Source: Schmidtea polychroa (lineage: Eukaryota). From it: a stretch of 64,000 bases of DNA. Numbering within the stretch: the stretch's first letter is position 1; each line of letters opens with the position of its first letter. This document shows positions 7,489 through 64,000 of this stretch, one piece after another. The DNA lies in assembly GCA_044892525.1 (NCBI GenBank), contig CM097885.1:162626001-162690000 (forward strand). The letters run 5' to 3'. A program made the position numbers and the translations under genes. The notes beneath the pieces were generated by a model. It had not been told where the DNA came from. It made no database searches and saw only the letters and a list, made by a program, of their open reading frames with translations.

Positions 7489-8390
7489 TGTTGGGTTAAG
7501 AATAAAATAGAAAATTCTTCTCGGTTGATAAGGTTTTTCTTGTTTTAATCCATTTAAAATAGGTAAGTGGTAGACTGAAACGATCCATATAGCAAAGAAA
7601 TCGCAAAAAGAATACTTAAAATCATTTAAAAACATTTAATAAAACAAAATAGAAACATAACAAGTGAAAATAAGAAAAACAAAATTAATAAAATCGAAAG
7701 TCACAACCAGTTACACTTGAAACATACGATAAGGAGCATTAAAACAAAAAATAAATCACCGAAAAAAGACATACAACTACAGAAATTACCATCGTATCCA
7801 TGGGATATGGATGGTATGTAAAGGCGATCATTTAATTAAACAGGATTGAAAAGAAAAGAAACAGTTTTAAAATTAATTAATAAACAAATTTAAATAAACA
7901 AATAAATAGACCAATCAAAATGATTGGAATTTGAAAGTTAAAAATGATCATTAAATCAAGTTATAAAAATCTATATAAGAGACCGTCTCCGGAGACACTT
8001 TACCTTTCTTTTTAAAAAATTTCAGATTTAAGATCAGCTCTACAATAAAAAGAACCGTTATAATTTATAAACAAACCATCTGGGCAATTTATATTCTTTT
8101 CGATATCTGAAATTCGATCACTGAAGTAATTTTTGTTGATTTCATATTTATGATCCTTTTAATGCAAATATTATGTATAATTTTCTATGATATTAAACGT
8201 TTACTATTTGTTTTCTTTCTTTTATGGTAATGAGTAAATAACTTTCTATTTCACGAAATAAGGCAGGTTCTAAATTTGTTTAATATTTTCGACGTAAGAC
8301 CTTCTATCGGCAGTCTCGAGCCCGATGAGAATGGCTGCAGATGATTAGTCTTAAGTCAAGGGCTCACCTGCTTTGTGTTGGACCAGGAAG
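7489..8390 (+). mobile_element. Truncated member of the TGTTGGG long-LTR family
   Basis: Starts TGTTGGGTTAAG, followed by a strand-biased A-rich tract. 8345-8372 matches the family 3' motif (TAGTCTTAAG..GGCTCACCTGCT). No 3' terminus or TSD found. Confidence 0.45.
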
Positions 8391-9030: not shown

Positions 9031-11850
9031 TGTTGGGCTGGAAAGAGACGATAATTTAAAAAAAAATCATAGGAGAAAAACACTAGGAAATAAAATAAAA
9101 ATCATAAATAAATCAAAAATGAATTAAAAACCTAGACAAATAAGCATCAGGAATAAATAATAACAAATTAGTTAGAGAAAATTAAAACGAAAAATAAAAA
9201 AATGAAAAATTAAGATAAGAAAACCGGAAAAAATAGTAGAATAATATAAAATTAAATAATAAAAAAGAAAATAAATAAAAAATAAGGAAACAATAAGGAA
9301 ACACTAAGAAAAACCACGAAAACCAAAGACACCGAATTAAAATAAAGAATTACACAGCGCCCAATTCTGATGGGTCCGCACAAACGCAAAATTAAGTATA
9401 TAAGGGAAACACTGAAATAAAATTTTCAGTGTTAACCCAAATATTATTTAAGACCTTTAAGGACGAACTTACAAAGCACTTCAAGAATCCAACTATAACT
9501 CAAGGACTAATTTCGGAAATCTTCAAGCCACAAATCACTCGAGGATCCATTTTCATTTTCAACGGGAAAGATTAAAAGAGTAAAATTAAATATTTTAAAT
9601 AAATAATAGTTTTTCCTTGCTTGCCAATTGATTAAACTAAATTATTATGAATTACAGTCTTACCCCGGTTAACGTTGTTAAATGGTTCCAGAAAAACGCG
9701 ATGTTAACCGAAACAACGTTATACGAAGCAATTATAATTAAGAAAAAAATTCGCAATTAAATAGATTTAAAAGATTAAGAGAATTTTGATATTATGAAAA
9801 TTAGATTTAATTCTTTATTAGAATATGTAATATATAATAAAATAATTAATTACATAATATTATGTACAAAAAAAGATTTTAAAATAACACCGCTTGCTTA
9901 GTTTTTGAAAAAACGGTTTTATTAAAAAAAACGTTACAGCGAAGCCACGCAACGTTACAGTGGGGTATGACTATAATGGTGGACCGACGTTACAGCGAAA
10001 CAACTTTATTCGGGGCAACGTTATCCGGGGTATGACTGTAGTTAAAAATTTTTATGATATATAAATATGATTATGCTCCATGAAGCGGGCGAATGAGTTA
10101 CATCTTTGATTATAACATTTTGGATTTTCGATGTGTAAATATGATTAAAGTTTTTAAATTGTCAATGCATTTCCGCGAAGCTGAGGTTCAGCTGGCCACA
10201 GCTCGAGGGACACTATTTGTTCCTCTTACCAGAAGGTCGGATGTTACTTCAGCGGCGCAGTGGTTGAAAACGGGTCATTGTGGGGGTTTCCTCACTGATC
10301 TGTCGCCACAAGAGCGAACCAGAAACTCGCGTCGATTGAATGACAATAGTTTGGATAAAATGAGCAGGAATTTTTGCAAGCGTCACTCGTGAATCGTTTT
10401 TTCGCAATGATTAAGGTGGTCGAGTCGTCGTCTGTCGTGCGTTACTCCAGGAAAGTATACTTTATCGATCGTCATTTTCTGATCACCGAAGCTCGCGTTC
10501 ATCGTCGGATTATTATCCCAGAAATTCCAGTGCCAAATTTTTGATCTTTATCAGTTCAGGTCACCCACCATCACCAAATAGTAGAAATGGTAAATGGGAC
10601 TACCATATTGCTTTGACCAAGAATCTTTTTTCGGATAAGCCACGCCATGACGAACTTGAGAATTTCGGATAGATTTGCCTCGATAGACTCGCCTTAATGA
10701 ACGAACCGAGCCGAGAAGGCGGCAGAATTTTTCACGTCTCAGTAAGACTAAGCTCACCTCGTCAGGATAAACGAGTTTCTAACAAGTCGATGTCATGATG
10801 TTAACTAATTTCTACTCGTGGTCGATCAATGTGGGATGATGTAAATGTGAAAAAGCCGATACTATCGTGATTCCTGATAAATTTTCTGATATCATTGACC
10901 ACCCGCTAACAACCCTATCCGAAAGGTGGTGGGGATTTACACTCGAAATTCAGCTCGTCGGATTATCTTCGCAGGCACGGTTAAGTACAGAAAGCTCGGT
11001 TACTGAGAACTAACAGTTGAATTTAGTATGACCCACCAGCAGAACTAGACAATCAGTAAATATATATCAGTCGGTCATTCACACAAAACCGAAACCCGAT
11101 TGTAGACAAAATATTGACAGCCATCCGATAACACTACGTGATCAGTTCTAGCGCTTCTAACAGAATAGCATTACCCACCACATGCAACTTAACGTATGCG
11201 CATAAATTGCAAATGCCTACGATAGGAAAGCGCAGATTTTGTCCTAAGGCGATCGTCCTAAATGTATTTGCTGATCGTGTTTTTATCAATACATCTTATT
11301 GTTGTGACTAGTAAAAATATTTTCGTGTTATGAATCGACCAATTAAGTAATTGTGAATGTTTGAATTGGTGTTGAATTTGGTAGTTAGGAAATTCGGTAG
11401 TGGATAATGGTGGTAATGATGGGAAAGTATACGGTACGATCGACCTTGCAGGGTGCAGATATGATTTGAATGTGGTAAATCTTGCGGTTGCGTGTTGGAT
11501 AGAGATAGGTTGGCGAATAGTGTCATGATGGAGATGGTTCAACGATGTGAATGATGTGCGACATTCCTGAATGATGAAAATGACGTAAGTCCTTCTAACG
11601 GCAGTCGAATGTTGGTTAAGTCGAGTTGCGATGAAGGAGTAGTCCTAAGGCAGGAGCTCACCTGCTTCATCGCAGCTCGCCGACATGGCACAGCACCAAC
11701 ATGATGTAGATCATGGGTGTCATGCTCGGAACCAGATCGTGTGGGAACTGGGTTAAGGGTCCCTTACGAATGAGGCATGTTGTTTGTATATTAAGGGCTA
11801 TCATCCCCTAGTAGACGGAAATGATGGGTGACCCGACCCAAGACCCAGCA
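9031..11850 (+). mobile_element. Long solo-LTR-like element (TG...CA), copy 1
   Basis: Termini TGTTGGGC / ACCCAGCA with 4-bp TSD CTAT (9027-9030, 11851-11854). Colinear with 46155-48663 over most of its length. Confidence 0.85.
9655..10038. mobile_element. Tc1/mariner-type MITE nested in the solo LTR
   Basis: TIR CAGTCTTACCCCGGTTAACGTTG vs rc CAGTCATACCCCGGATAACGTTG, TA TSD. The homologous site in copy 2 (~46890, TATGAATTAG) is empty. Confidence 0.9.
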
Positions 11851-13764
11851 CTATGTAATTTTATTTATAACAATTAAAAATTAAACGATAACGTTTTTCT
11901 TTTTCCTTTAAAACATTATAACGATTTTCTTTAAAATAAAAGTGCAGTAACCGATTTGATTTTTATGATTTTTATGATTTTTATGAATTTTATTCTTTTT
12001 ATTCTTTTTATGAATGTGACCGCATTGAACTATGTTCGTAAGGTGTTGGCACTCGTGTTGATGCTAAAGCGGATGTTTGCCAGTTCAGAGCATTGGTTGA
12101 GAAATTGAGATAAACGATAGGGTTATCTTTAGAAGTGTAGATATATTTTGACAGATTTTTGAGTGTAATGCAGTGAAACCAAGGTTGAATGGAGAGCGTT
12201 TTTGGCATTGAGGTAGAATTCAGTAGGAGATTTCTGAAATTCCACGTCAGCAATAATAGATCCAATTGTTAGTACCAATTGCATAGGTACACGATAGGAC
12301 ATAGATGTCAATGTAAATCGTATTTCAATTTCCAGCGTAGAACTGGATTTACAAGTTAGTTAGCGAGGACGTTAAATCATATAACTCGGAAAGAGAATTG
12401 TCGTCATTCTGGAAGAATGACCAGTAGAAAGTTAAATCGTAGACTACAGCATATTCTAGGTAGACACAGTCACAAATCCACTCCCACCGTTAGCATTAAA
12501 TCCAAACATTAGATATATACGGTCAGTAGAGCCGAGAACCTGCAACATTCGAAACCGTGAAGATTATATAGTCGTCATGATAACTTCCACCGTAAAACAT
12601 ACTGCTCAATAAGCAAATCTTTGAGAGAGAGATGATAACGATAGTAGATCACCACCAACCTAGGCATGTACCGCAGTAGTATTCAGTAATGAAGTTAATA
12701 AAACTAAAACATCGGCAAGATTTGTTAACATGATATTTATTTCTAATGACAAGCGAATGTTTTCACATATTAGACCAATCTGATAGGAAGAATAGAATCC
12801 AGAAAGTTAAAGTATAATTAAACGTAAATATTGATTCTCAATTAAGACAAATAACATGTGGACTATGAACTTCCGAGAGAAATTAGTCGAATTGAAAGAC
12901 GAGGCGAGTGAAACAAAGTCGATAAGTGATATAACGATGTCGAGCAATTATTAAAATCGGAATTGATTATTTACATTTAACTATGATTTTGTAAATTTTA
13001 TGAAATATCGTAATTGACCTAAACTTCCGTAGTTAGCTGTACTTACAAGAAGCAAACGCATAAATATCAAATCATATTTTTCATTATTAAACATAAATGT
13101 TAGGGATTGCGATACGATGAATAAGTTTACTTTAATTATAAAAAATAATGATACTTGTAATAAATTCGTTCTGAAACTCGTGGTAATCCTAGTGAGAGAA
13201 TCCACCACATCTCTTAATTTCTCTGTCGATTTTACGCGTTTATTCCTATAACATTTGCTCATAAAATTTATATTCGAGTACAAGGAGCTAATGGTAGACT
13301 GACTGACAAGCTGATAATACTGTTGGATGATGAAGGTAGGCACATCACCACATTCAATCTCAACAAGTATTATAGGACTGGGCCCAGAAAATATAGAGTC
13401 AATGTATGCGCTGAAGAGCGTAGGTAAATCAAACAGCTCAGCAGTCCAATTCCACAACAATCCAATGCCTCAAACAATAGTAACAACCAACAATTCAATT
13501 CCTCAATTAAATTCATCAAATGATAACAATAACTTTTGTGTGATGAATCGTATCAAACTTTATTAACATTGACCTAGCCATTTTTTATTTGTGTATAAAT
13601 TTTTAGTGTATTTTACTTTATTGACATTATCAACACTCTATGTGCTTTTAACCTTATTTATTTTTATTCATATTTGTATGTAAAATTTTGATTATATTTG
13701 ATTGTAAATTTTATTGCTAAACACAAAAAATAAATATGTATATAAAGGGTAATTGATATTTATA

Positions 13765-27395: not shown

Positions 27396-27495
27396 AGGGT
27401 AATCCTCGATTGTTTCTGTGCACTTCCTCTAATTCATAAAAAATTAGAAATTTTACGAATATGTAAACTCAAGTCAATTTGTAAATAGTTTCATC

Positions 27496-28395
27496 ATGGA
27501 GAGCAGAGCCCAGAAGGTCTTAGTACATGAGCAGTCACAGGCCCTGAACCAGGTCTATACAACGAAAGAAATTGAATCGAGAATCTCGTGATATAAAGAG
27601 ATCGTCAATAACACTATCGTCGCAGCACACTATCTAATGCCGGACATTCTCTTCTCACCTTCGTGGGCAGGATGCTCTTTGTTAGTATTTACGGCTGGCA
27701 CCAAACACCCGTAGTCGTGAATGTGTCACCAGTAGTCGCACCATGAACCTAAGCGTGCCTACCCCGTTGCCAACAAACTCAAAGCCAAAAAGAAGAAATT
27801 TATCAAAGGCGGAACGTAACGCCAAGAAAAAAGCAAGAATAGCAGCAGCACTCGCTCAACTCAATGAAATCATCAGTCCACCGAACTTAACGATCGAAAT
27901 GCCCGAAAATGAGTTTGAACTAGACGTTCTCCTGGCGGACTGGAGCGCAACGGATGGTTTATTGATGACAAATGTTCTGGAGCAATCATGTCAAAGATTC
28001 GAATTTGATTTATCCATTATCTTTCTTTGTGGTTAATTTAATAATGAACTACCTTAATTGTGTTTAGTGCTTTTGTTTTGTTGCGATGAAAATTCAAGGA
28101 GAGGAGGAAAGTGTTCGCGCAATGGATGAAGTTGAAATCTGAGTCGAGTAACGTCGCCATAGAAAACAAGTAAGCCACAAACGTAATTCCCTCTAACGGC
28201 AGTAAAGAACCCGTTGGAAATGTAAAGAGTTGTAAGAGGGTAGCTCAACTACTATTTATTTTCCCATTGACAGTGGGAGTACCAACATGATAGTTGTCAT
28301 GGGCACACTGATCGAAATCGTTCTAAATCATGAGCGTTTGAGCACTAAGTACAAAATCAACTATTAGCGGAGTTTTTTTAACCCGAACGCCAACA
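27496..28395 (+). mobile_element. 3' part of a long-LTR-family element with embedded fossil ORF (27496-28036)
   Basis: 28186-28306 matches the family motif (CTCTAACGGCAGT, AGCTCA, ACCAACATGA..TCATGGG) and ends ACCCGAACGCCAACA. The ORF remnant ESRAQ..QSQALNQVYT is homologous to the one at 63010. Confidence 0.7.
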
Positions 28396-32928: not shown

Positions 32929-34176
32929 CAATTGTTTGGTTCCATGCCGATACCGTATTATTGTTTCTTCCCGTTCGTAGATTACCCCATCGATGGTTAC
33001 AGTCTCCCCAACATCAATATTTGAAGTGTTTTTCCTTTTTCTCGCTTGTCGACATTCGGGCATTGGACCATACTCAAGTGTTGGGTGTATTCTTACCATC
33101 GAAACACTTATCATTACTGAAACACATTCTTGTGAAATTTCCAAAAACGATTCGGTGGCCCACTTTAATGGAATTAATGGATTTTCGGTCTCCATCTCCA
33201 CATTCTCCTCGCTTGTCAAGTCAATTTGTTCTGCTTCCATCACATCGTCAACCAGAATTTGTGCCACTTTCACTACCGTTTGTAATTTGAACCATTCTCC
33301 TTTCCTGGTTATTCCCCTGTTCTGGAGTACTGGTGCCGCTGCCAAATCACGAATGCCATATAATTGCTCAATCCATATTCCCAAATATTGCAATTCTGCA
33401 TGTAAATCATGGCCCACTAGTATCTTGCCAACTGTCAATTGTTGGATGTCTTTTGTTGCCACATATTGATCGCATTGATTCCTGCTAGCTACTTCTGTGA
33501 TTCCGTGGATCCTTGAATTAAAATGGCGAATTTTTCCCCTTGGAGTCAAGTATATATTCTTTATTATTTTTCCATAATAATTCATAATCGCAAGTGCTAG
33601 AGGGACCATTTTTCCTTGTTCAGACGTGCCATATTCTGCATCAATAAACAATATTCAGTTGCGGATTTCTTCCAAATCCATTTCCTTTCTGAGAAACGAC
33701 ATTTTCCTTTTCAACATTTCTTTCGAAATTTTCATTAACATTGGATCTTCTCTTGCACTTGGCTGCATCTACGGAACTTCGTTCGCTTCATTTTCGATTC
33801 TGATTTCCACTACCATGGTTGTTTCTTCATTCGCTGCTCGTAACATTCTCCACATGAAGTCTCTCTGCAGCTTCCACGACGTAAATTTTTTAAGTTCCCA
33901 ACACACTTTGTTGTCATTCGTCAGTACCTCAACGGTATCCTTGATCACATGTAGATGATATTCTTCTTTCCTTGACATCTCTACTTCTTCTGCTAATCGC
34001 AATTTTGACATCCTCATGATCGTAAACATTTGGATCTTCATTTTTCGGTCATCAATTCTTAAATAATTTGGGATTTGGAGATTGTCATTGATCCGGTATA
34101 CTTTTTGTCCGGCATGATTGTTCTTCATTTTGATGTAGCTGTCGTAGGTCGACCTTGCCAACTGTATTTGTTCCAT
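32929..34176 (-). pseudogene. Accessory ORF with REX4/ISG20-like DEDD 3'-5' exonuclease domain
   Basis: ORFs 33769-34176 and 32779-33651 are in the same frame, separated only by TAG and TGA. ExoI FIDAE, NYYG..YLTP..IHGI, ExoII ILVGHDLHAEL, IRD. ExoIII not visible. The 3' end runs into a gap. Confidence 0.85.
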
Positions 34177-46154: not shown

Positions 46155-48663
46155 TGTTGGGCTGAAAAGAAATCAACATAAGCAAAAATTAAAAGGGAAA
46201 AACACTAAGAAATAATACAAAAATCATAAATAAATTAAAAACCAAGACAAACAAACATTAGAAATAAATAATAACAAATTGGCTAGAGAGAATTAAAACA
46301 AAAAAAATAAAAAATCAGGATAAAAAGACCGAGAAAAATAGTAAAACAATGTAAAAATTAAATGATTAATAAGAAAAATAATAAAAAATAAAGAAACACT
46401 AAGAAAACCAACAAAAAACAAAGAAATCGAATTAAAAATAAATAATGAAACAGCGCCCAATTTTGATTGGTCCGCACAAACACAAAATTAAGTATATAAG
46501 GGAGACACTGAAATAAAATTTTCAATGTTAATCCAATCAAGGAAACAAATCACTCGGAGATCTATTTTTCATCGTGTACATTCATGTATCATTCACAGAG
46601 TGTTAATCCAACCATTTTTAAGACACAGTTATACAGCATTTTCAAGGAACTCAAGGAATAATTCAAGGAACTTTCAAGGAAACAAATCACTCGGAGATCT
46701 ATTTTTCATCACGCAGGGAAACAATTGTTGAGAAACTAAGTAAAATTTTGTTTGTATTTATATGAATGATCTATGAAATAAATACTTAGGTTAAATATTT
46801 TGATATGATTAGTATGGAAGTTTTCTTAAATTAAATGATTTTAAAAAATGTTTTCCTTACTTGCCATTTGATTAATTTAAAGTTTTTATGAATTAGATAA
46901 ATTTTATGTTATAGATAATGCTTATGATTTTTCGATATTTAAATAAGACCATGTTTTATGAAATTTTAACGCATTCCGCGAAGCTGAGGTTCAGCTGGCC
47001 ACAGCTCGAGGGACACTGGTTGTTCCTCTTGCCAGAAGGTCGGATGTTACATCAGCAGCGCAGTGGTTGGGATCGGGTCATAGTGGGGGTTTCCTCACTG
47101 ATCTGTCCCCACAGGAACGAAAATAAGACTCAGAACAATAAAGTAAAAGATGTTTGGACTAAAATCAGCATGAATTTGTAAAACGTAGTTCGAGAGTCTT
47201 CGCAATGACTAAAGTGGCTGACATATCGCTCGTTTTGTGTTACCCCAGAAATTTATAATTCTCGACTTTCACCTGTCGTCGTTATAATCGTCTAAAATCG
47301 CGTTTACCGTCAGTTCGTGCTCGCAGAAATTCCGGTACAAGATTTTTCGAACTTTATCGGTAAGAACCCTCGTCATCACAGAACGATAAAAATTCTAAAT
47401 ACGACAAACAGTGTTACTTTGGTAAAAATTGCTTTTCTAATAAATCCCGTCACAACGAACTTGAGAATTTCCAACTAAAATAGTTTTGCCTCGTTAGACT
47501 CATCTCGAGGAACAATCCGAGCCGGAAAAACGGTAGAATTTTCATATCTCAGTACGACTAAACTCACCTCGCCAGGAAAAACGAGTTTCTAATAGTTAAA
47601 GTTGTACTTTTATCCAATTATTACCGTGATTGAGTCTAATTTTTAGGCGATGTGAACGCCATGAGAGTCGATCTTATCGTTAACGTTGATAACTCCTTTT
47701 TACCATTGCCCATCCGGTCACAACACTACTCTCACCTGTGGCTGGGAACTTACACCCGCAAATCTTCGCTTCAAATAATAACCACGCACCAAGATACATG
47801 TAAATAACACTGCACAGATCAACAGTCGAATTCGCACGAGCTAATTGGAACCAGATAATCAGTTATATGTATTCTATTCGATCTAATCGCGCCTGACTTC
47901 ACATAAAATCAAAATAGACACTCGGTGGTATTTCATAGATAAGTATACCTTCTAGGGCCGAGCGAACGAAGAGAAGGAGAGCTCCCAGGCTGAGAGAGAT
48001 GCGACTTTGATCGCCTCTGCTAAACACCAAGCTCCTGTACCTTCAGCGGAAGTTTTACCTCACTCTCCTCCTGCGTTCAGAGTAATACCATCCACAAGCA
48101 CCACCTGGGAGGAAGATGCCCCAGACTTCTTTGATCTCGATGAGATCTTTTCTGAGACATCGCCCAACACCTTGTGATTATGTCGTTTGTCGTAGTACAC
48201 AAATATAATTGTCGTGTGTTATTGATTAATATTAAATAATTGCGAATGATCGGTTGATGTTGATCTATTAATGAAAAATGCGGTGGTAAATGAAGGGGTG
48301 ATGAGAACGTCGTGAATCTTTGTTTTGTGTGTTAGACAGAGGTCGTTTTAGTGAGTAGGGTATCATAGTGGAGATTGTTCGATGATGGGAATGATGCGCG
48401 CAATCCTTGAACGATGAAAATGACGTAAGTCCTTCTAACGGCAGTCGAGTGTTAGTTAAGTCAAGTTGGGATGAAGGAGTAGTCCTAAGACAGGGGCTCA
48501 CCTGCTTCATCGTAGCTCGCCGACATGGCACATCACCAACATGATGCGAATCATGGGTGTCATGGTTAAGGGTCCCTTGGAACGATGGCATGCCGTATGC
48601 GCGTCAAGGGCTATCATCTCCTAGTAGTTGAAAATGTCTTATGACCCGACCCAAGGCCCAGCA
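46155..48663 (+). mobile_element. Long solo-LTR-like element, copy 2
   Basis: TGTTGGGC / GCCCAGCA termini with 4-bp TSD ATAT (46151-46154, 48664-48667). Homologous to 9031-11850. Internal CAAGGAA(ACAAATCACTCGGAGATCT) repeats at 46538-46710. Confidence 0.87.
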
Positions 48664-48827
48664 ATATGGTACTTAAGGTTAAATGCGTGTTTTGTTGATT
48701 TTTTAGTATTATTGTTATTATTATCGTTTTTACATAAAAATTAAAACTTTACTAACGTCATTAATCCAACTTTTTTGTCCGTTTCATTTTGAATTTTGTG
48801 TTTCACTTTAAATTTGAAGAAGAAAAA

Positions 48828-54745: not shown

Positions 54746-55430
54746 TGTCGCTTAGGGGTGTGTCGCGATAGTGGTTGTTAGGGGAAGTTGTATCTGCTCA
54801 GAAGGACTCCTTCCTAAACGCCCACAACGTAGTCTTTATACGACACATGTGTACCCATGACACTGGTCATGTTGGTGATGTACACACTGGTGGGAATTCA
54901 TGAGCAGGTGAGCCCCTGCGTTAGCACTATTCCTCATTTACATCTACATTATTTTCCCATACTGGTATACTGCCAAACCCCTGGTCCAGTTGAGGGAAGG
55001 CTAATAATGTGGTTTCGACGACGACTAGTTCGTCCCGTACTTTCTCCGCATGAGTGAGATGCTTACGTTTTCGTGAAGTTAACCGTTTCGAAATTGTTGA
55101 TGGTGCTGTTGGGCGCTTAGGGGAGTTTCGAAATAGATGGTTGTCAGGGGCAACTGATTGATTTGCTCTACGAAAGACTCTTTCCTAAACACCCAATTAT
55201 GATTAGCAGTTTATCTACCACGTGTGTACCCATGAAATTATTCATGTTGGTGATGTAAGGAAATCATGAGTAGGTGAACAACTACCTTAGGACTACTACT
55301 CAAGATACTCTCGGTTCGGGTTTCAGAATGACGATAGAAAGTCTTACATCTTTCTCGTGGAAATCACGTTCAATTTCCGATACACCTCTGGTCCAAATGA
55401 GGTCCTCTCAAATCACTTCGTGGCAGTCAA
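54746..55430 (-). mobile_element. Two adjacent 3'-end fragments of the long-LTR family
   Basis: Two diverged copies of the hairpin motif (54852-54933, 55227-55298). Minus-strand ends ..GCGACA (54746) and ..GCGCCCAACA (55107). Confidence 0.65.
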
Positions 55431-56979
55431 CTTAACACATCCTAATGACTATGAATACGCCAAAAAGACACAAAATTCTATTAAAACAAAAATAATATCC
55501 AACAAGATAATTTTTACATTCGCTTTTGACGAGTGACGCAATCTAAATGTAATCTGATACCTTCGCCAGACAACGCAGATAATATAACAAATTACAAACA
55601 TCCTTCAGGTCATCGTGGATACAGTTTATTGATCAGAACGTTAGACTTTTGTGCGTGATTGGAGAGTAGATCAATCAAAACAGATGGAGATTTGTATGAT
55701 ATTGTTTACAAAAGCGAACGTGAGCGACGTTTCCGGTATATTTGTCGAGATTATGATGGAAAGTTTCAGATGCATTGTTGATCGACGATTCTACACAATC
55801 TCCGAAGTCTATTCGAATTTCATGAACTGCCTTGATAGTGTAATTCATGCATGGAGATGTACATTCTGGAATTCACCGCCTTTCTATTACTTCTCTGCTA
55901 GATATATTAAGTCTGAGACAATACATTTATTATCTGTCTATATGGTGTCACTCGAGAAATTCAGTTATACGTAATCATTGGAATTTTTACCATTGGTATT
56001 CGAGAAAGCTTCATCATAGATGTGTTATAGCGAAAGTTCTAACTCAACGAGTGTTTGGTTTTATAGGCATTGTTGGGCTTAAAGCCGAAAATCCGAGTAG
56101 AACTGTGATAATAATTAAGCTCGAAACCATAGAACCCGAAATAAGAGCACGAGAACCCAAACGGTCAGGAGTCACTAAAATAACGTAGTCAACAAATTTA
56201 AAAACTAAGACACAATAATAAGAAAAATAAGCGATATAGATAAAAAGAAAAAGGAAATTAATTAATTAAAAAAGCAAAAACGTAAAAATCAACACCAAGA
56301 AACTAATAATGAGGACCTACAAACCCCGACCAACTAACCACAACAAAACCAATATAAAGAAAATAATTAAAGAAGATAAGAATAATAACAGAAAGTTAAA
56401 ATAAATAAAGGAAAAAGCAATATAAAACGCGAAACAAAAGCAAAAGAAATTAAAAACAACCAGTTATAATCATCAATGGAAATCCGCCAAAAATTGGGAA
56501 AAAAAAGAAAAAACAAAAAAATCAATTAAATAATAAATTAAAACCGATAAGTAAGTCAGAAAAACAAATAAAAACCCAAAAAATAAGAAAATAATAAGAA
56601 ATGCACGCCAACCACGCCCTGATTAAACGAAAAATAATATATAAGGAGGTCGCCTAGATCAGTTGACTAACTCCAAAAATTCTACAACAGGTACAACCAG
56701 AAAACTTCAAAATTCATTCTACAGGCTACCTAGCAACTTATAGATTCATCATGCAGGACTTAATTGAGAGCTACTGACAATTTTAAACAGGAACTTCGGC
56801 AAATATTTTACAACCAAATAACCTAAACCAGTTTATATTACCTTCAAGGGATAAGTTTCAAGGAAATTCAGAGTTTCGTAAACGATTATCACAGTTCTAT
56901 CTGGATTCGAGAATTCGGAAAAGTAATTTGCGATTTCATTTTTATATTTAGTAGTAATTATGATGAACCATATTAAGTA

Positions 56980-57630
56980 CCCTAAGTTCTTGTCTATAAG
57001 CCGCGGCTTATCTAAAAAAAAATCAACCCGACATTCATAAAAACAGTATCGGCTTATACATAAGTACGGCTTATACACAAAATATATTAAATGAAAAGGT
57101 TATGCATTTTTAAAAAAATATTTGCCCACTAGTAATTTTCCTTTTAATTTAAATTCTCGATTAATCAAAGCCATCAAATTCTTCTCCTGATTCAGTATTG
57201 AAAAACTCAAGAATATCATTATAAGATGCTGGAATTTCTGATTCAATTTCGCTCTCGGATTCTTCTTCAAATTCTTCTTCGCTACAAGTGACCCTTATTG
57301 CCTCTTCATTTGAATATTCACAGATATTCGCAGCCTTAAATCCATTTTTAATGCAATCCACCGTTATTTCATCCCAGCATTCGTCGAACCAGTCTGCTAC
57401 CATATGAGGGACATTTCCTATTATGCGGTTTTGTAGACTATCTTGCTGTAAAAGATCAACGGGATGCCATTACGCACGTTGAGGTCCAATAAATATGCGC
57501 GAAATTACTTAAAAACTTTACGGCTTATCCATGAGTCCGGCTTATCTAAGATAAAAAAAATTTTTTTAATATATGTGATTTAGAGAAACCGGTTTATGCA
57601 CGAGTCCGGCTTATAGACAAGAACTTAGGG
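56980..57630 (-). mobile_element. Internally deleted pogo-like element
   Basis: Perfect TIR CCCTAAGTTCTTGTCTATAAGCCG, TA TSD. pogo C-terminal fragment WDEITVDCIKNGFK (57161-57403). Confidence 0.9.
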
Positions 57631-57831
57631 TAGTTTAATTTTGTATATAATACTTTATTAAATCAAAATATTATTGTTCAAATGAATTCGATATTGCTTG
57701 GAAGATCGTGTATGACCCTCTACCGCCAGATAGACGAAAGAAGTTTTCATGAGTTTCGTATGTCGCAGATGTATCACAGGAGCAAGTAAAAATACCCACG
57801 GCAGTTCCAGAAGACCTCTTATGCCATAAGA

Positions 57832-57903
57832 ATATATATGCGGCCCCCGATAACAATCAAGTTTTCTATGTGGCCCTTTATAGAAAAAGTTTGCCCACCC
57901 CTG
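57832..57903 (+). mobile_element. Isolated 3' terminus of the SPIN-like hAT
   Basis: Exact reverse complement of 58647-~58718, ending AGTTTGCCCACCCCTG. Confidence 0.9.
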
Positions 57904-58646
57904 TCTTATGGAGATCATTGAGATTGAGTACGATGAATAGAATGGTAAATCATTTGGTAGACAGTTTTGGGAATAGTCATGCACGGGGCAAGGGATATGG
58001 TCATCGGTGAGAATTTTATTATTATTTTGATTACATGAATTGATAACTTTTGACTTGTTAAAGATTTATCTAAACGGTCAAATCGTCTTGTATGGTCGTT
58101 CAAAAGTAGTTAGTGCTTGCACCGGTGGCTTTTGAGTGAACCGTGCAGGGTAGGAAGACCAATAATATCATTCCAACACCACACATGAACAACAGAAGCA
58201 TTGAAATGTCATCTTCGAGGTGCGAGTAGGAGGATAGTTAGGAAAACTCAATTTTCTGAGAGTAAATTACAGCGTTTCGAATTTTCGTACATATTTGAAC
58301 TCGGCGTACAATTTAGATCACTTGAATTCTCGCAGAACTTTCGTTAACTATCTGGTCAAGAATCTGACATGACAAGCTTCTAAATAACCGAACTCTCTTC
58401 GTACGTTTTACAGAGATATAACCATCGTAATTGTTTCATAAGGAATTTCCACAGCCAGTATCAGGAGTTGATTCAAACTATAGTGTAACCGACAAATACG
58501 GCGCGAATATAACACAGACGACGAGTTTTAAAATGATTTCCGTAGTATTGATCCATAAGAAGCCGAACTAGCAAGACGCGGTAGAAAATCAATTGACATT
58601 CATCACGTAAACATAAGTCCGCAATTGGCCGATGGATAGTCTACAC

Positions 58647-59451
58647 CAGGGGTGGGCAAACTTTTTCTATAAAGGGCCACATAGAAAACTTGATTGTTAT
58701 CGGGGGCCGCATATATATTTTGTGAATTTAATGAACTTAATGAACTCGCCGTCAGAAAAGGGCTTGTTACGTTTTACAATCTTATGGGACAGCATCAAAC
58801 TGGTCTCGGTTGCAGTATCTTGTATTACAGAATGTTTGGTGAGAACAGTTTGCTGCTTCTTTAAATTATTAACCAACTCCTGGCATTTCTTTTTTCTCTC
58901 TTCGTTTGTTAAATTGCGCCCGAAATCCAAATATCTTGTTTTGTAGTGTCTTTTCAAGTTGTACTCTTTAAAGACGCTCACACACTCACGGCACAGCAAG
59001 CAGACTGCTTTGCTCCCAACGCTCGTGAAGCAGTATTTAGCAGTCCATTCGACATTAAAAACACGACATTCGTCTTCAATCTTTCTTTTTTTAGCAACAC
59101 TCATGGGTAATTCAAAGTCTTCGCTTTAAAATTACAATTTTTACAAAGCCTTTCAAAATGTAAATTGTAAATAAAAGCCTCTTCTGGTTGAACGGAAAAG
59201 CAGTTTCAATGTTAACTAGTAATGACCAGTAATTAATAATATTCTGGAGCCATAAAATCAATTAAATATCCATAAATTCGAATCAAAGCAATAAGAAATA
59301 CACTTCAAAAATATAGGCAAAACTGCAAGTCTAAGCTCCAAACAAAGAAAATTAATTTCGCATAGGATTGCCACATGTACATGCATACGGGCCGCATAAT
59401 ATACTCTGACGGGCTGCATGCGGCCCGCGGGCCGTAGTTTGCCCACCCCTG
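58647..59451 (-). mobile_element. Internally deleted hAT (SPIN/GTF2IRD2-like)
   Basis: TIR CAGGGGTGGGCAAACT at both ends, perfect 8-bp TSD GTCTACAC. N-terminal transposase fragment MSVAKKRKIEDECRVFNVEW..CLLC..NLKRHY (59104 to ~58730). Confidence 0.95.
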
Positions 59452-60520
59452 GTCTACACTGTTTATAACAAAGAAACTTCGTTCGGTCTGATCGTACCAT
59501 TCTATTACATTTCCGATTGTAACAATAACATTTACATCAAATTGCTAAAATTGATAAACTTTGATGATGGTAGAACGGATCAAGTCAATGTCAAAATCCA
59601 CATGAAATTTAAATTCAACTTCCTGTTTACCAATCTTATTAATAATTGTTTACCACGCTGTGAAAATTCGATGAATTTTTGATCAATATAAATTCGACCA
59701 GGTAAAATCCAACTTTACAAACAGAATTAAATAATGATATTTGGTGAAATGAAATGCAATTAAACCGACCTTAAATCTCTAGGTATTGAACTGTAGGAGA
59801 TACTAAAACAGGTACAAACTGACCCGACGAGGCGGCAGATTTTTAGATCATAACAGTAAGTTAATAAACTCGACAGCGGGGAGGGTAAATTCCAGATAAT
59901 CTGTATTTTATGTGGTAAACTGCGGAATATTTAGAAGAGTCAAACAAACGAGTAAAACATAGCACTTATTAAACCTAATCGTTAGTCTATTCAACAATAT
60001 CTACCTATCCAACTATCGAAGTAGATGCCTGAATTTTAATGAACATAGAGCAAAACACGAATTTTTCAAATTGCTAAAATAGAATTAAAATTAAAAATTC
60101 GACCTATGATAGTGTGATTGCTTCATTCATTGATCGACAAAATCCCAACTATTAACGAACTCACATGAAAACTAAATCTGTCTATCGGGGATACACATCA
60201 AATTACCCGGGGAATTGCGGACTATATCCTAAAGAAGCGGCGTATTGGTGGGAATTTGAGTGCATATATGAGAAGGGAATGGATCCATCGACGAGTAATA
60301 AATAAAATCGTTTTCTTCAGATATATGCGAACCTAACTTACCGCCAAAGGGGCCGAGACCATGCTTCTCGTGCTCGGACAAGAATGCCGACATCAATAAG
60401 CTTAAGGCACACATCGGGTTTCTTAAACAGCGCACCGAGACGCTTGAACACACGTGGTTCTCCCTGCCACAAATGAAGGAAGAGAAAATGAAAGTTCTCA
60501 GATTGGATCACTGTCGTGAC

Positions 60521-63001
60521 CTATTCCGGATTTACCTATAGGCAGACTAGGCACTGCCTAGGGGCCCGCAGTTTTGGGGGCCCCAAAATCGAAATCATCT
60601 AAGGGGCCACAAAAAAAATATTTTATTTAATGGATTTTTTATATACTAAAATATAAAAAAATTAAAATACAGTATAAAATACATGTATTATATAAAGAAT
60701 TAAAAAAACATTGTACGTATTTTTTTATTTAAGGAAATTTTCTAAAATATCAACAATTTGGGGCCCCAGTAATTTTAAAAGTTGTTATAGTTGAAAAAAT
60801 ATTTTTTCTTTATTTCCGCAACCTCCAAGGGGGTTATAATTAGTGGAGTTTGTCGGTTGAAATTTGCGAAGGCGGGGATCGAATTGTTATTGTGTAGAAA
60901 CATATTTTTTTGGAGTGTTGGTAAAAATTTTATACACAAAAGAAAAAAATTATTTCAAAGGAAATCGGCTTAAAAATAAAAAATTTAAAATAAAGCAATT
61001 TTAGGACGAAGTGAGGCTTTTTTTTAATTGATTAATTGTTAAGATCTAGGTATAGTATAAAAATATTAAAATTATTTAATCAATTTAATTAAAAAATACT
61101 TTAATTAAATTTAAGATAGAATGAAACGAAACTACGCAAGCGGAGCGTTTAAAAGGAAGAAAAAAGCAGAAGGAGAAGAAGAAATTAAGAAAATTCCTAA
61201 GCTAGATTGTTTTTTCACTAAAGATTCTGCAACTGAAAGTGAATTTGTAGCACAACAAGATCGGCACCAAAGCGACCAAATAGAGGTCTCTTCCAGTACT
61301 TCAAATCAACCTATTTTCACTGGAAGTTCAAATCAAGTTTTTAATTATTTCGAAAATAATTTGGAGCTGGTAGATAACATTAATAATGAAAATTTAGTGG
61401 AATCCCTGATTGAATCATCTCCAAATGCAAATCGTGAGAATGACGTAGGATTATGGAGAGAATTGTCTTCTGAAGACACTTTGTACTGGATTGGAAGCAC
61501 TAAATGCCATCATTGAAGATGCAAATTTTGATGGAAACACTAGAAATGAAGCAAATAATTTATTGAATAAAATGGAGGAGTTTGAATTCGCACTTCTCGT
61601 TATATTTTGGGATCAGGTTCTAGAGAGAATTAATGCAGTTTCAAAAAATTTGCAAAGTCCTAAAGTCACATTAGACGTTTGTTCTTCGTTATATGCATCT
61701 CTAGCTTCATATATTACAAATTTGAAAAATAGCTTTGATGAAATTAAAATTGAAGCTAAAAAATTGTTACCAAACACTGACTACACTGTCAAGAGAAAGG
61801 GATTTAAAAAGAAATTTCCAGATGAAGATCAAACTACCACAGAACCAGAAATTAGTGCTAATGAGAACTTTCTAAACAACTAAATGCCATCATTGAAGAT
61901 GCAAATTTTGATGGAAACACTAGAAATGAAGCAAATAATTTATTGAATAAAATGGAGGAGTTTGAATTCGCACTTCTCGTTATATTTTGGGATCAGGTTC
62001 TAGAGAGAATTAATGCAGTTTCAAAAAATTTGCAAAGTCCTAAAGTCACATTAGACGTTTGTTCTTCGTTATATGCATCTCTAGCTTCATATATTACAAA
62101 TTTGAAAAATAGCTTTGATGAAATTAAAATTGAAGCTAAAAAATTGTTACCAAACACTGACTACACTGTCAAGAGAAAGGGATTTAAAAAGAAATTTCCA
62201 GATGAAGATCAAACTACCACAGAACCAGAAATTAGTGCTAATGAGAACTTTCTAAACAACGTCTTCATGAAAATTTTAGAAAACATCGAAAATAATTTGA
62301 TTCAGCGCTCTGATTGTTACTTGGAAATTTCTAAAGTGTTTGGTTTTTTGACAAATATTGAATTGTCGCAAGAAGATTTGAAACAACATGTGAATAACGT
62401 TGTTGAACAATATCCAGATGATATAGACGATTCACTTTTTTTCGAGTTACTACAATTTCACGAATATATCAGGAACGATTGGCCAAATGATCATCCAAAT
62501 CATTTGAGTTTCTACGAGATAATTAAGGAAAAAAATTTGGAAATTGCTTTTCCAAATTTGGAAACAATTTTAAGAATTTTTTTGTGTCTAATGATTGCTA
62601 ATTGCACTGGCGAAAGAAGTTTCTCAAAATTGAAGCTGATTAAAAATTTTTTGAGGTCAACGATGAGTCAAAAAATTTGAATAATTTGGCCTTATTATCT
62701 TGTAACATTGATAAATTGAAAGCTATTGATTTTGATTCATTGATTGATCAATATGCTCTAGAAAAATTTAGAAAGAAAGTTTTGTAAAATTATATTTTTG
62801 ACATGACATATGTATCTTATTTTTAAACGGAATTATTTAATAAATATATTTCAAAATATAAATAGGTAGTAAATAATTATTTCTTAAATACTTTTAGCAA
62901 ATAAAATAACCTACATAATTTCCTTGAAATATACTAATTAATTTTGAGGGCCCCAAAAAGCTCCTTTGCATAGGGCCAACAAATGCTTAAATCCGGCCCT
63001 G
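60521..63001 (+). mobile_element. hAT element (ZMYM1-like), internally deleted; transposase remnant 61121-62787
   Basis: Perfect 8-bp TSD GTCGTGAC. Right TIR rc CAGGGCCGGATTTA vs left CTATTCCGGATTTA. hATC domain FPNLETILRIFL..NCTGERSFSKLKLIKNFLRSTMSQ. Confidence 0.93.
61501..62260 (+). repeat. Perfect 380-bp tandem duplication inside the hAT transposase
   Basis: 61501-61880 reads identical to 61881-62260. Confidence 0.95.
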
Positions 63002-64000
63002 GTCGTGACAGGCTCCTTGAAGAAAGCCGGCGCCAAAGATTAACCATCAAGGCACAGTCAGAAGCCCTTCACCAGATATATACCGACTCGAAATTGCAGC
63101 GAATCCGAGAATTTCCGATTAAATACGGGGTTAACGTATTCCCTTTACATCACAGAGCAGATGAAATGGATACTCCGGTATTATGGTCATGTACCAGTCA
63201 TGGACTTGGATTAGGAAAAATTTATAATCCCATCCTCAGTGGGCACCGATTCCCATCAATCCATCTTCTAACTCCGCACCAGCAAATGTCGGTCTGGTAT
63301 CGCAAGGTATCGCAAAGAAACGAAAAAGGCTATCCAGGGCAGAACGCACGGCGAAACGAAGAGAGAAAATATGGATGCGCTCATCGACGCCCTGCTAGCC
63401 GAAGAGGATCTGAATCTAAACAAATCATCCCAGGAAAACATCTAAGTTCATTCAACTGTACCATTTTGTAAAAATCCGAGAGGTGACATGCTGCGAGTGA
63501 TCTTGATCTATATAAAGACCTTTTATCGCACCCAGGAACCCGCATTGCGAACCTGGTGGGTAGTAGTCTTAATGCAGAGGCTCATCTGTCCATCAGTTTC
63601 TGACCTGCGTACACGATACCAACGTGGACCATCATCATGGGTGTACGTATGGGATATTCATAGTAAATCATGACGGATGCTCGGGGGGAAAGCTGAGCGC
63701 ACAACGAACCTCCGCGGGTACCCAACAGCATGGTCAATTCGAAATCTGCTCGGACGATTCTACTCACTACTATCTCGGATCAATATTTCTTCCTCGCTCA
63801 TTTAGTACGACTGACTACAAACTGTCAATCTGTAGGCCATCAGCACGAGTGCCAACGGTACACAAAGATCCTTACAATCTGGTCCCATCGCATATAATTA
63901 TGATAAAATTAAATCAAAATTTCATACAATAAATGTCGCAGCAAAAATCTTCGTCATTGACTTTAAATGTGTTCACTATGCACTTCAAATATCTCCTGAC

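Follow-up and report, generated by a model that had tools for sequence, protein, structure and literature searches.

A gene under purifying selection inside the long terminal repeats of Burro-type Ty3/gypsy elements of Schmidtea polychroa, and a possible role in RNA processing and export

We found that the long terminal repeats (LTRs) of Burro-type Ty3/gypsy elements in the Schmidtea polychroa genome encode a protein of about 253 aa, and that this LTR-encoded gene is under strong purifying selection. The window (the whole 64-kb stretch of DNA analysed here) holds two decayed copies of it. Judging from sequence features, the protein may be a Rev/CERV-like regulator that helps intron-retaining RNA of the element get made and exported; this is our preferred reading, at a probability somewhat short of even. 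The analysis defines a protein, two RNA structures, and a candidate for its partner in the host.

The gene in young elements and in the window

A protein search of the genome (781 Mb, AT-rich) yielded 7,027 first-look candidates; 149 of these were scored. Six same-strand pairs, 20–34 kb apart, were examined as possible LTR pairs, and all six proved to be so, with 4220–4241 bp LTRs that run from TG to CA and are 99.7–100% identical. The 12 LTRs of these six young elements all carry an ATG-initiated open frame of 253 codons. A set of 49 full-length open frames was reduced to 44 with a start methionine and then to 27 distinct copies.

Coding constraint across copies, which the first-pass annotation of this DNA had set beforehand as one test of its proposal, was clear. 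Among eight young-family copies, 23 of the 28 pairs were measurable and had dN/dS of 0.05–0.23 (at or below 0.13 in 21), and the other five pairs were saturated. For the whole ORF, pN/pS was 0.20, whereas the shifted frames gave 1.30 and 2.16; across all 27 copies the ORF gave 0.37. The strongest constraint fell on residues 13–101 (0.05), with higher ratios at 102–135 (0.30) and in the linker (0.40). The two features that had been highlighted earlier, an NLS-like basic helix and an acidic-hydrophobic tail, are both constrained (0.16 and 0.14).

The elements share with Burro a single polyprotein joining gag, env, and pol with a mononegavirus-type fusion protein, multi-kb LTRs, a total length of 24–38 kb, and host-like cargo (RING, MATH, ankyrin). 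The open stretch of 3333 aa in locus L121 matches PF03732, PF00098, PF24664, PF00077, PF00078, PF17917, and PF00665, in that order. The Burro polyprotein is described as gag, mononegavirus-type fusion protein, protease, RT, RNase H, integrase, and ankyrin repeats (PMC6431247). In single polyprotein, long LTRs, and RING and MATH cargo, our elements are the same as the Burro/GYPSM1 giant Ty3/gypsy elements of dugesiid planarians as presented there; the section on these elements mentions no gene inside the LTR (PMC6431247). In young elements, a RING-finger ORF lies between the 5′ LTR and gag (L111:8466-8960). A sequence like a primer-binding site follows the LTR end in young elements, and we take it to resemble tRNA-Pro.

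The protein carries a CxxC motif and a coiled coil, as well as a basic helix and a tail of acidic-hydrophobic character. An AlphaFold2 model (pTM 0.33) places helices at residues 18–41, 48–101, 182–213, and 242–247 and leaves the rest disordered. We considered an antiparallel hairpin for the N-terminal part and rejected it: a second model (pTM 0.39) aligned along its whole length with straight coiled coils, which leaves support only for a pair of long helices with a kink at a proline. The conserved basic segment corresponds to helix 182–213 and is rich in arginine and lysine, as in Rev, Rex, and Rec; in most copies it includes a proline. A bZIP assignment was also discarded, since PF00170 and PF07716 gave no match and the proline breaks the basic segment in most copies.

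Other LTR families carry a 169-aa paralogue that has the coiled coil with the WFSP kink in common (29% over 90 aa, E 3e-10) and a basic helix, without the CxxC and without the acidic tail. Examples are L199:5640-6146 and L202:4299-4670, among 6,605 first-look candidates; in L202 the paralogue stands upstream of the 253-aa gene within the same LTR.

The earlier suggestion of an unrecognised LTR-encoded family agrees with all our sequence, domain, and structure searches, which found no database relative. A set of 5.8 billion sequences gave no homologue among 639 and 4,187 candidates (near lengths only), and 1.84 billion representatives gave 0 matches. Pfam gave no match and PDB sequences no homologue, and the same searches with the sequence databases showed no sequence homology to Rev, Rex, or Rec members. 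The BFVD structure search had a best E of 0.018 and no homologue, and VIA-align returned only generic coiled coils for the N-terminal part (Z ≤6.4). In the literature searched we met no description of a gene inside Burro LTRs; Grohme 2018 and Lee 2026, which lie beyond that scope, may describe it.

Neither window copy is intact (Table 1). The first-pass annotation had read 27496-28036 as one ORF starting at an ATG at 27496. This does not stand: stops occur at 27589 (in frame within the first remnant), 27712, and 27718, the frame changes before the basic segment, and the ATG aligns with an internal codon of relatives, about 65 N-terminal codons being missing. After the LTR end of copy 1 there is no primer-binding site, and the 5′ part of its LTR was not found. 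The second copy had been placed at 63022. Its segment there is indeed homologous to that at 27499 (BLOSUM62 score 65; 0 of 2000 shuffles as high), but the gene begins at 60323, where the ATG is absent, and is split by a hAT transposon.

A basic segment is present in both copies as proposed, but RYRKETKK is off-frame (score 19; 1040 of 2000 shuffles as high), and the true copy 2 partner, KKRKRLSRAERTAKRREK, is read in a different frame (score 54; 0 of 2000 shuffles). The two acidic tails, compared alone, match at chance level (271 of 2000), and their homology rests on the family alignment. In copy 2, MDALIDALLAEED fuses two motifs that open copies keep about 45 residues apart. The window contains PKRRNLSKAERNAKKKAR and ENEFELDVLLADW, which are conserved among relatives, and both copies lie within LTRs, each ending in the structured block followed by the CCAACA LTR end, as had been noticed. 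The poly(A) hexamer of open copies is absent from both. Considering the stops, frame changes, and hAT split, both copies are decayed, and therefore a working protein is unlikely from either.

Table 1. Features of the two copies of the LTR gene in the window. Window pieces have pN/pS of 0.20–0.40 against relatives, a ratio biased down because partners were filtered at 45% identity.
Copy	Feature	Position	Strand	Evidence
1	Second half of coiled coil and following motif (profile positions 66-132)	27484..27690	+	pN/pS 0.38 vs 12 relatives
1	Linker and basic helix (KPKRRNLSKAERNAKKKAR), frame differs from N-side remnant	27722..27880	+	pN/pS 0.38, 15 partners
1	Acidic-hydrophobic tail	27866..27950	+	pN/pS 0.20, 8 partners; family alignment
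1	Structured block (hairpin of the first-pass annotation), predicted U5	28178..28338	+	
1	LTR 3′ end (CGCCAACA)	28388..28395	+	
2	Solo LTR TGTTGG...CCCAACA, 4-bp duplication (GCAT) on either side, insertion-enlarged	56071..63727	+	
2	Covarying hairpin, predicted intron of R region	58072..58167	+	
2	Pyrimidine tract and AG (predicted splice acceptor) immediately 5′ of gene	60310..60320	+	
2	Gene codons 1-66 (CxxC, first helix, WFSxP kink)	60323..60520	+	pN/pS 0.26, 93 partners
2	hAT DNA transposon (PF05699) interrupting the gene, 8-bp duplication GTCGTGAC	60521..63001	+	
2	Remainder of gene, three frames and internal deletions	63010..63420	+	
2	True basic segment	63255-63374	+	
2	Structured block, predicted U5	63514..63690	+	

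Elsewhere in the window, further decayed LTRs with the U5 block lie at 9031-11855, 46155-48668, 54844-55354, and 8290-8374, and 47965-48165 retains the C-terminal part of the same LTR gene. The hAT element contains a perfect 380-bp tandem duplication (61499-62260). On the minus strand, downstream of pol in a minus-strand element, a frame at 32929-33654 resembles, we presume, a DEDDh exonuclease; it had no Pfam match. Decayed gag, fusion-protein, and pol frames are present in the window too, arranged as reported for Burro elements of planarians (PMC6431247).

A predicted transcription unit and two RNA structures

Each LTR is predicted to be a complete transcription unit with a start site near LTR position 540. 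The predicted order is a CCAAT/TATA promoter, a short exon, introns, an acceptor, the ORF, a poly(A) signal, and the structured block. The CCAAT and TATA boxes lie near LTR positions 505–520, with an initiator-like TCAGT near 540, and 17 of 28 upstream regions contain the CCAAT-TATA pair. A first donor follows the CCAAT box by 60–83 nt in 9/15. A pyrimidine tract and AG stand 0–3 nt before the ATG in 24 of the 27 copies, whereas only 20 of 709 control ATGs have them; the acceptor-ATG spacing varies, which implies a non-coding leader. A poly(A)-type hexamer precedes the structured block by 143–162 nt in 20 of the 22 copies whose block start could be placed (2.5 expected); the hexamer pattern was picked after viewing the alignment, and the narrow spacing was not imposed. 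On this map, U3 is predicted to span about 540 nt, with the gene in an R of about 3.3 kb and the structured block in U5.

Several side observations concern this map. In several families, the sequence that closes the predicted first intron is a repeat of the last part of the short first exon (L111:4320-4405). Two conserved complementary stretches, which flank the predicted third exon and terminate at the donor of that exon, could form a long-range stem (L111:4680-4905). Weaker poly(A) hexamers (AATATA, AATACA) follow the stop codon in several young families (L111, L127, L140, L148, L170, L176), with AATAAA in others, and these weaker hexamers could favour read-through. We rejected GTAAG in the U5 block as the major donor, its GT being present in only 37/45 copies.

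The U5 block is a real RNA structure. Of 82 non-redundant copies, 45 were aligned; compensatory changes support 26 of the 27 pairs in this alignment, and pairing holds in 91.4% of cells, compared with 33–48% when the alignment is slid. The hairpin bulge is nearly invariant (CCAAC, 43–45 of 45 per column). The block lies about 60–80 nt before the LTR end and the primer-binding-site-like sequence, where packaging and priming signals are expected.

The first-pass annotation had proposed a Tat/TAR-like pair in which the basic helix binds this bulged hairpin and boosts elongation. The hairpin does exist next to the gene and its bulge hardly varies, but we consider the pair very improbable. TAR works only adjacent to the cap, and the U5 hairpin is not TAR-like because it lies about 3.4 kb past the predicted start and beyond the poly(A) hexamer. 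At the predicted start site itself, a +1 hairpin is present in only 6 of 17 promoters, and these six belong to a single clade.

The second structure is a hairpin in a predicted intron. Of its 33 non-redundant hits, 30 entered the alignment, after removal of two partial ones and a near-duplicate. Compensatory change is seen in 23 of the 31 pairs, and 92.6% are paired, compared with 36–50% when slid. Its asymmetric loop is strongly conserved (G32 28/30, G70 30/30, U71 30/30, G72 27/30). It could not be aligned in 3 of 15 promoter-anchored copies, and the invariant GU(R) could be merely a splice donor. Rfam searches on the LTR gave nothing meaningful (best E 0.62). Stem IIB of the HIV-1 RRE has non-canonical G pairs (G47-A73, G48-G71) and a bulged U72, and the G/U conservation in the loop of our hairpin, whose intronic location is predicted, is comparable to that site (PMC4488727).

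Possible functions of the LTR protein

With promoter, introns, and poly(A) signal all predicted to lie in the LTR beside the ORF, a spliced, LTR-only mRNA would yield the protein early. The predicted introns and poly(A) signal in R imply that the element must also make an intron-retaining, read-through RNA, and since the introns of R survive copying, we infer that such RNA must be packaged. The layout of the LTR thus points to control of RNA processing or export more than of elongation. An early LTR product would be well placed to control the intron-retaining, read-through RNA, as CERV does for Cer1 (PMC10309623). In this model, oligomerisation would fall to the coiled coil and recognition of structured RNA to the basic helix, for which the intron hairpin is the leading candidate target and the U5 block the next. 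The tail would serve to dock a host factor, perhaps UAP56/TREX in place of CRM1. Counting against this Rev/CERV-like role, the tail is missing in the paralogue that keeps the coiled coil and the basic helix. Moreover, in simple retroviruses an RNA element suffices by itself for the export of unspliced RNA (PMC10309623), so intron retention needs no such protein.

The choice of partner depends on the tail. Its core pattern (acid-hydrophobic-acid-x-hydrophobic-hydrophobic) occurs in the last 25 residues of 20/27 copies, against 0.2 expected by shuffling, although the pattern was defined on these same tails. The tail is predicted to be helical (242–247), and the last 20 residues have a net charge of −4 to −7 in 21 of 27 copies. 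No CRM1-type export signal of any class is conserved in the tail across the 27 copies; a class 1d pattern follows the basic helix in 7/27, and the class 3 pattern found in 24/27 falls on the heptad of the coiled coil.

The host's own ALYREF-like and CHTOP-like genes, in the same genome, begin or end with helices resembling the tail. The four host UBM-type motifs rank in the top 0.1% of 15,800 background 10-mers when compared with the tail, a background unmatched for acidic helices, and each is the best window of its protein. UBMs are the motifs by which the adaptors ALYREF and CHTOP bind UAP56 (PMC5095910, PMC7744094, PMC12823420). Neither PF13865 nor PF07078 matched the tail or the protein, and PF07078 matched nothing, controls included. 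The tail motif is generic: paxillin LD peptides match it as well, and acidic activation domains look like UBM-type helices. The tail is best called a docking helix, whose partner is possibly UAP56/TREX rather than CRM1.

Over 86 aa, an exon of the host UAP56 gene matches Dugesia japonica WM6 at 100% identity. Seven look-alike loci (L224-L227, L229-L231) carry a UAP56 exon fragment inside a shared repeat, possibly captured by a mobile element.

A more specific version of the export model, quite improbable in our estimate, is that the LTR product mimics ALYREF: it would oligomerise, bind the RRE-like intron hairpin, and pass intron-retaining RNA to UAP56/TREX. If so, the element would switch from a short LTR-only mRNA to read-through genomic RNA, by a CRM1-independent Rev circuit held wholly within the LTR, solo copies included, and acting in trans from thousands of sites.

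The tail may instead be an activation domain, as the first-pass annotation proposed. The protein would then be a promoter transactivator like foamy-virus Tas or HTLV Tax, with the basic helix or a host partner binding U3, the acidic tail recruiting coactivators, and positive feedback on every LTR. The constraint, predicted helix, and acidity of the tail agree with this, as do its aromatic-rich composition in divergent copies and the conservation of U3 positions 301–500 among three families (0.74–0.78, equal to the best part of the ORF); the tail-less paralogue could act as a dampener. However, acidity in the main clade is confined to about 15 residues (net −2 to −6 over the last 39), and no known DNA-binding fold was matched; in the Atlas search every score was below 0.9, with bZIP at only 0.79–0.83. 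Transactivation would also leave the conserved RNA structures and the splice signals unexplained, and we regard it as unlikely.

Somewhat less probable again is a host-directed role, in which an oligomeric nuclear factor with a tail mimicking a host docking helix would, for example, blunt piRNA silencing or apoptosis. The best short PDB matches of the tail are paxillin LD peptides, a resemblance that is not significant (E 0.7–0.9). Burro carries host-like cargo (RING, MATH, ankyrin; PMC6431247), PIWI is reported to silence it (PMC8532177), and an anti-apoptotic role of other Burro cargo is mentioned at second hand (PMC13465017). Yet residues 13–101 are near-invariant with saturated synonymous sites, unlike an arms race, and the protein has no similarity to any host family.

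Comparison with known regulators

Returning to the Rev/CERV-like role, the closest precedent is CERV of the Caenorhabditis elegans element Cer1, a nuclear protein made from a spliced mRNA and required for export of unspliced RNA (PMC10309623). Both proteins belong to Ty3/gypsy elements and have a zipper, a basic NLS, and a Cys motif (PMC10309623), and that export role is the one proposed here for the LTR protein. CERV is described as having 517 aa, internal exons shared with gag, and two globular domains (PMC10309623); unlike it, the 253-aa LTR protein has its entire coding sequence within the LTR and is made up mainly of coiled coil and disordered stretches. The H, M, and G domains and gag-shared exons of CERV have no counterpart, the model containing four helices only, and CERV gave no sequence match to the LTR protein in database searches. 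Export of unspliced RNA has been settled for few invertebrate LTR elements with introns, and CERV is the sole precedent in the literature searched.

Like HIV-1 Rev, the protein combines a basic helix, oligomer-prone helices, and a short C-terminal effector motif, and like the RRE, the candidate intronic hairpin has a purine-rich asymmetric loop with an invariant U (PMC4488727). Unlike in HIV-1, there is no conserved leucine-rich export signal and no homology, and gene and candidate element are both in the LTR. The ALYREF/CHTOP adaptors likewise have a terminal short acidic helix beside basic RNA-binding stretches (PMC5095910, PMC7744094, PMC12823420), but the LTR protein is without an RRM or RG repeats.

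Burro1 is linked, at second hand, to planarian stem-cell survival, and family activity matters in view of this reported link (PMC13465017). With 7,027 first-look genomic candidates, the protein could set the activity of the whole family.

MMTV Sag, HIV Nef, and foamy-virus Tas are regulators encoded in or next to the LTR. With these and the additional ORFs of plant elements (PMC7264820), the gene has in common an accessory position at or in the LTR, spliced expression (here predicted), and a proposed regulatory role. Unlike them (encoded in U3 or between pol and the 3′ LTR), it is predicted to lie in an R of about 3.3 kb, so the element would have to choose between the poly(A) site of the 5′ LTR and read-through. 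With promoter and poly(A) signal in the gene's own LTR, solo LTRs would be complete genes. On the best reading, the LTR protein would work like Rev and CERV, yet it belongs to neither family.
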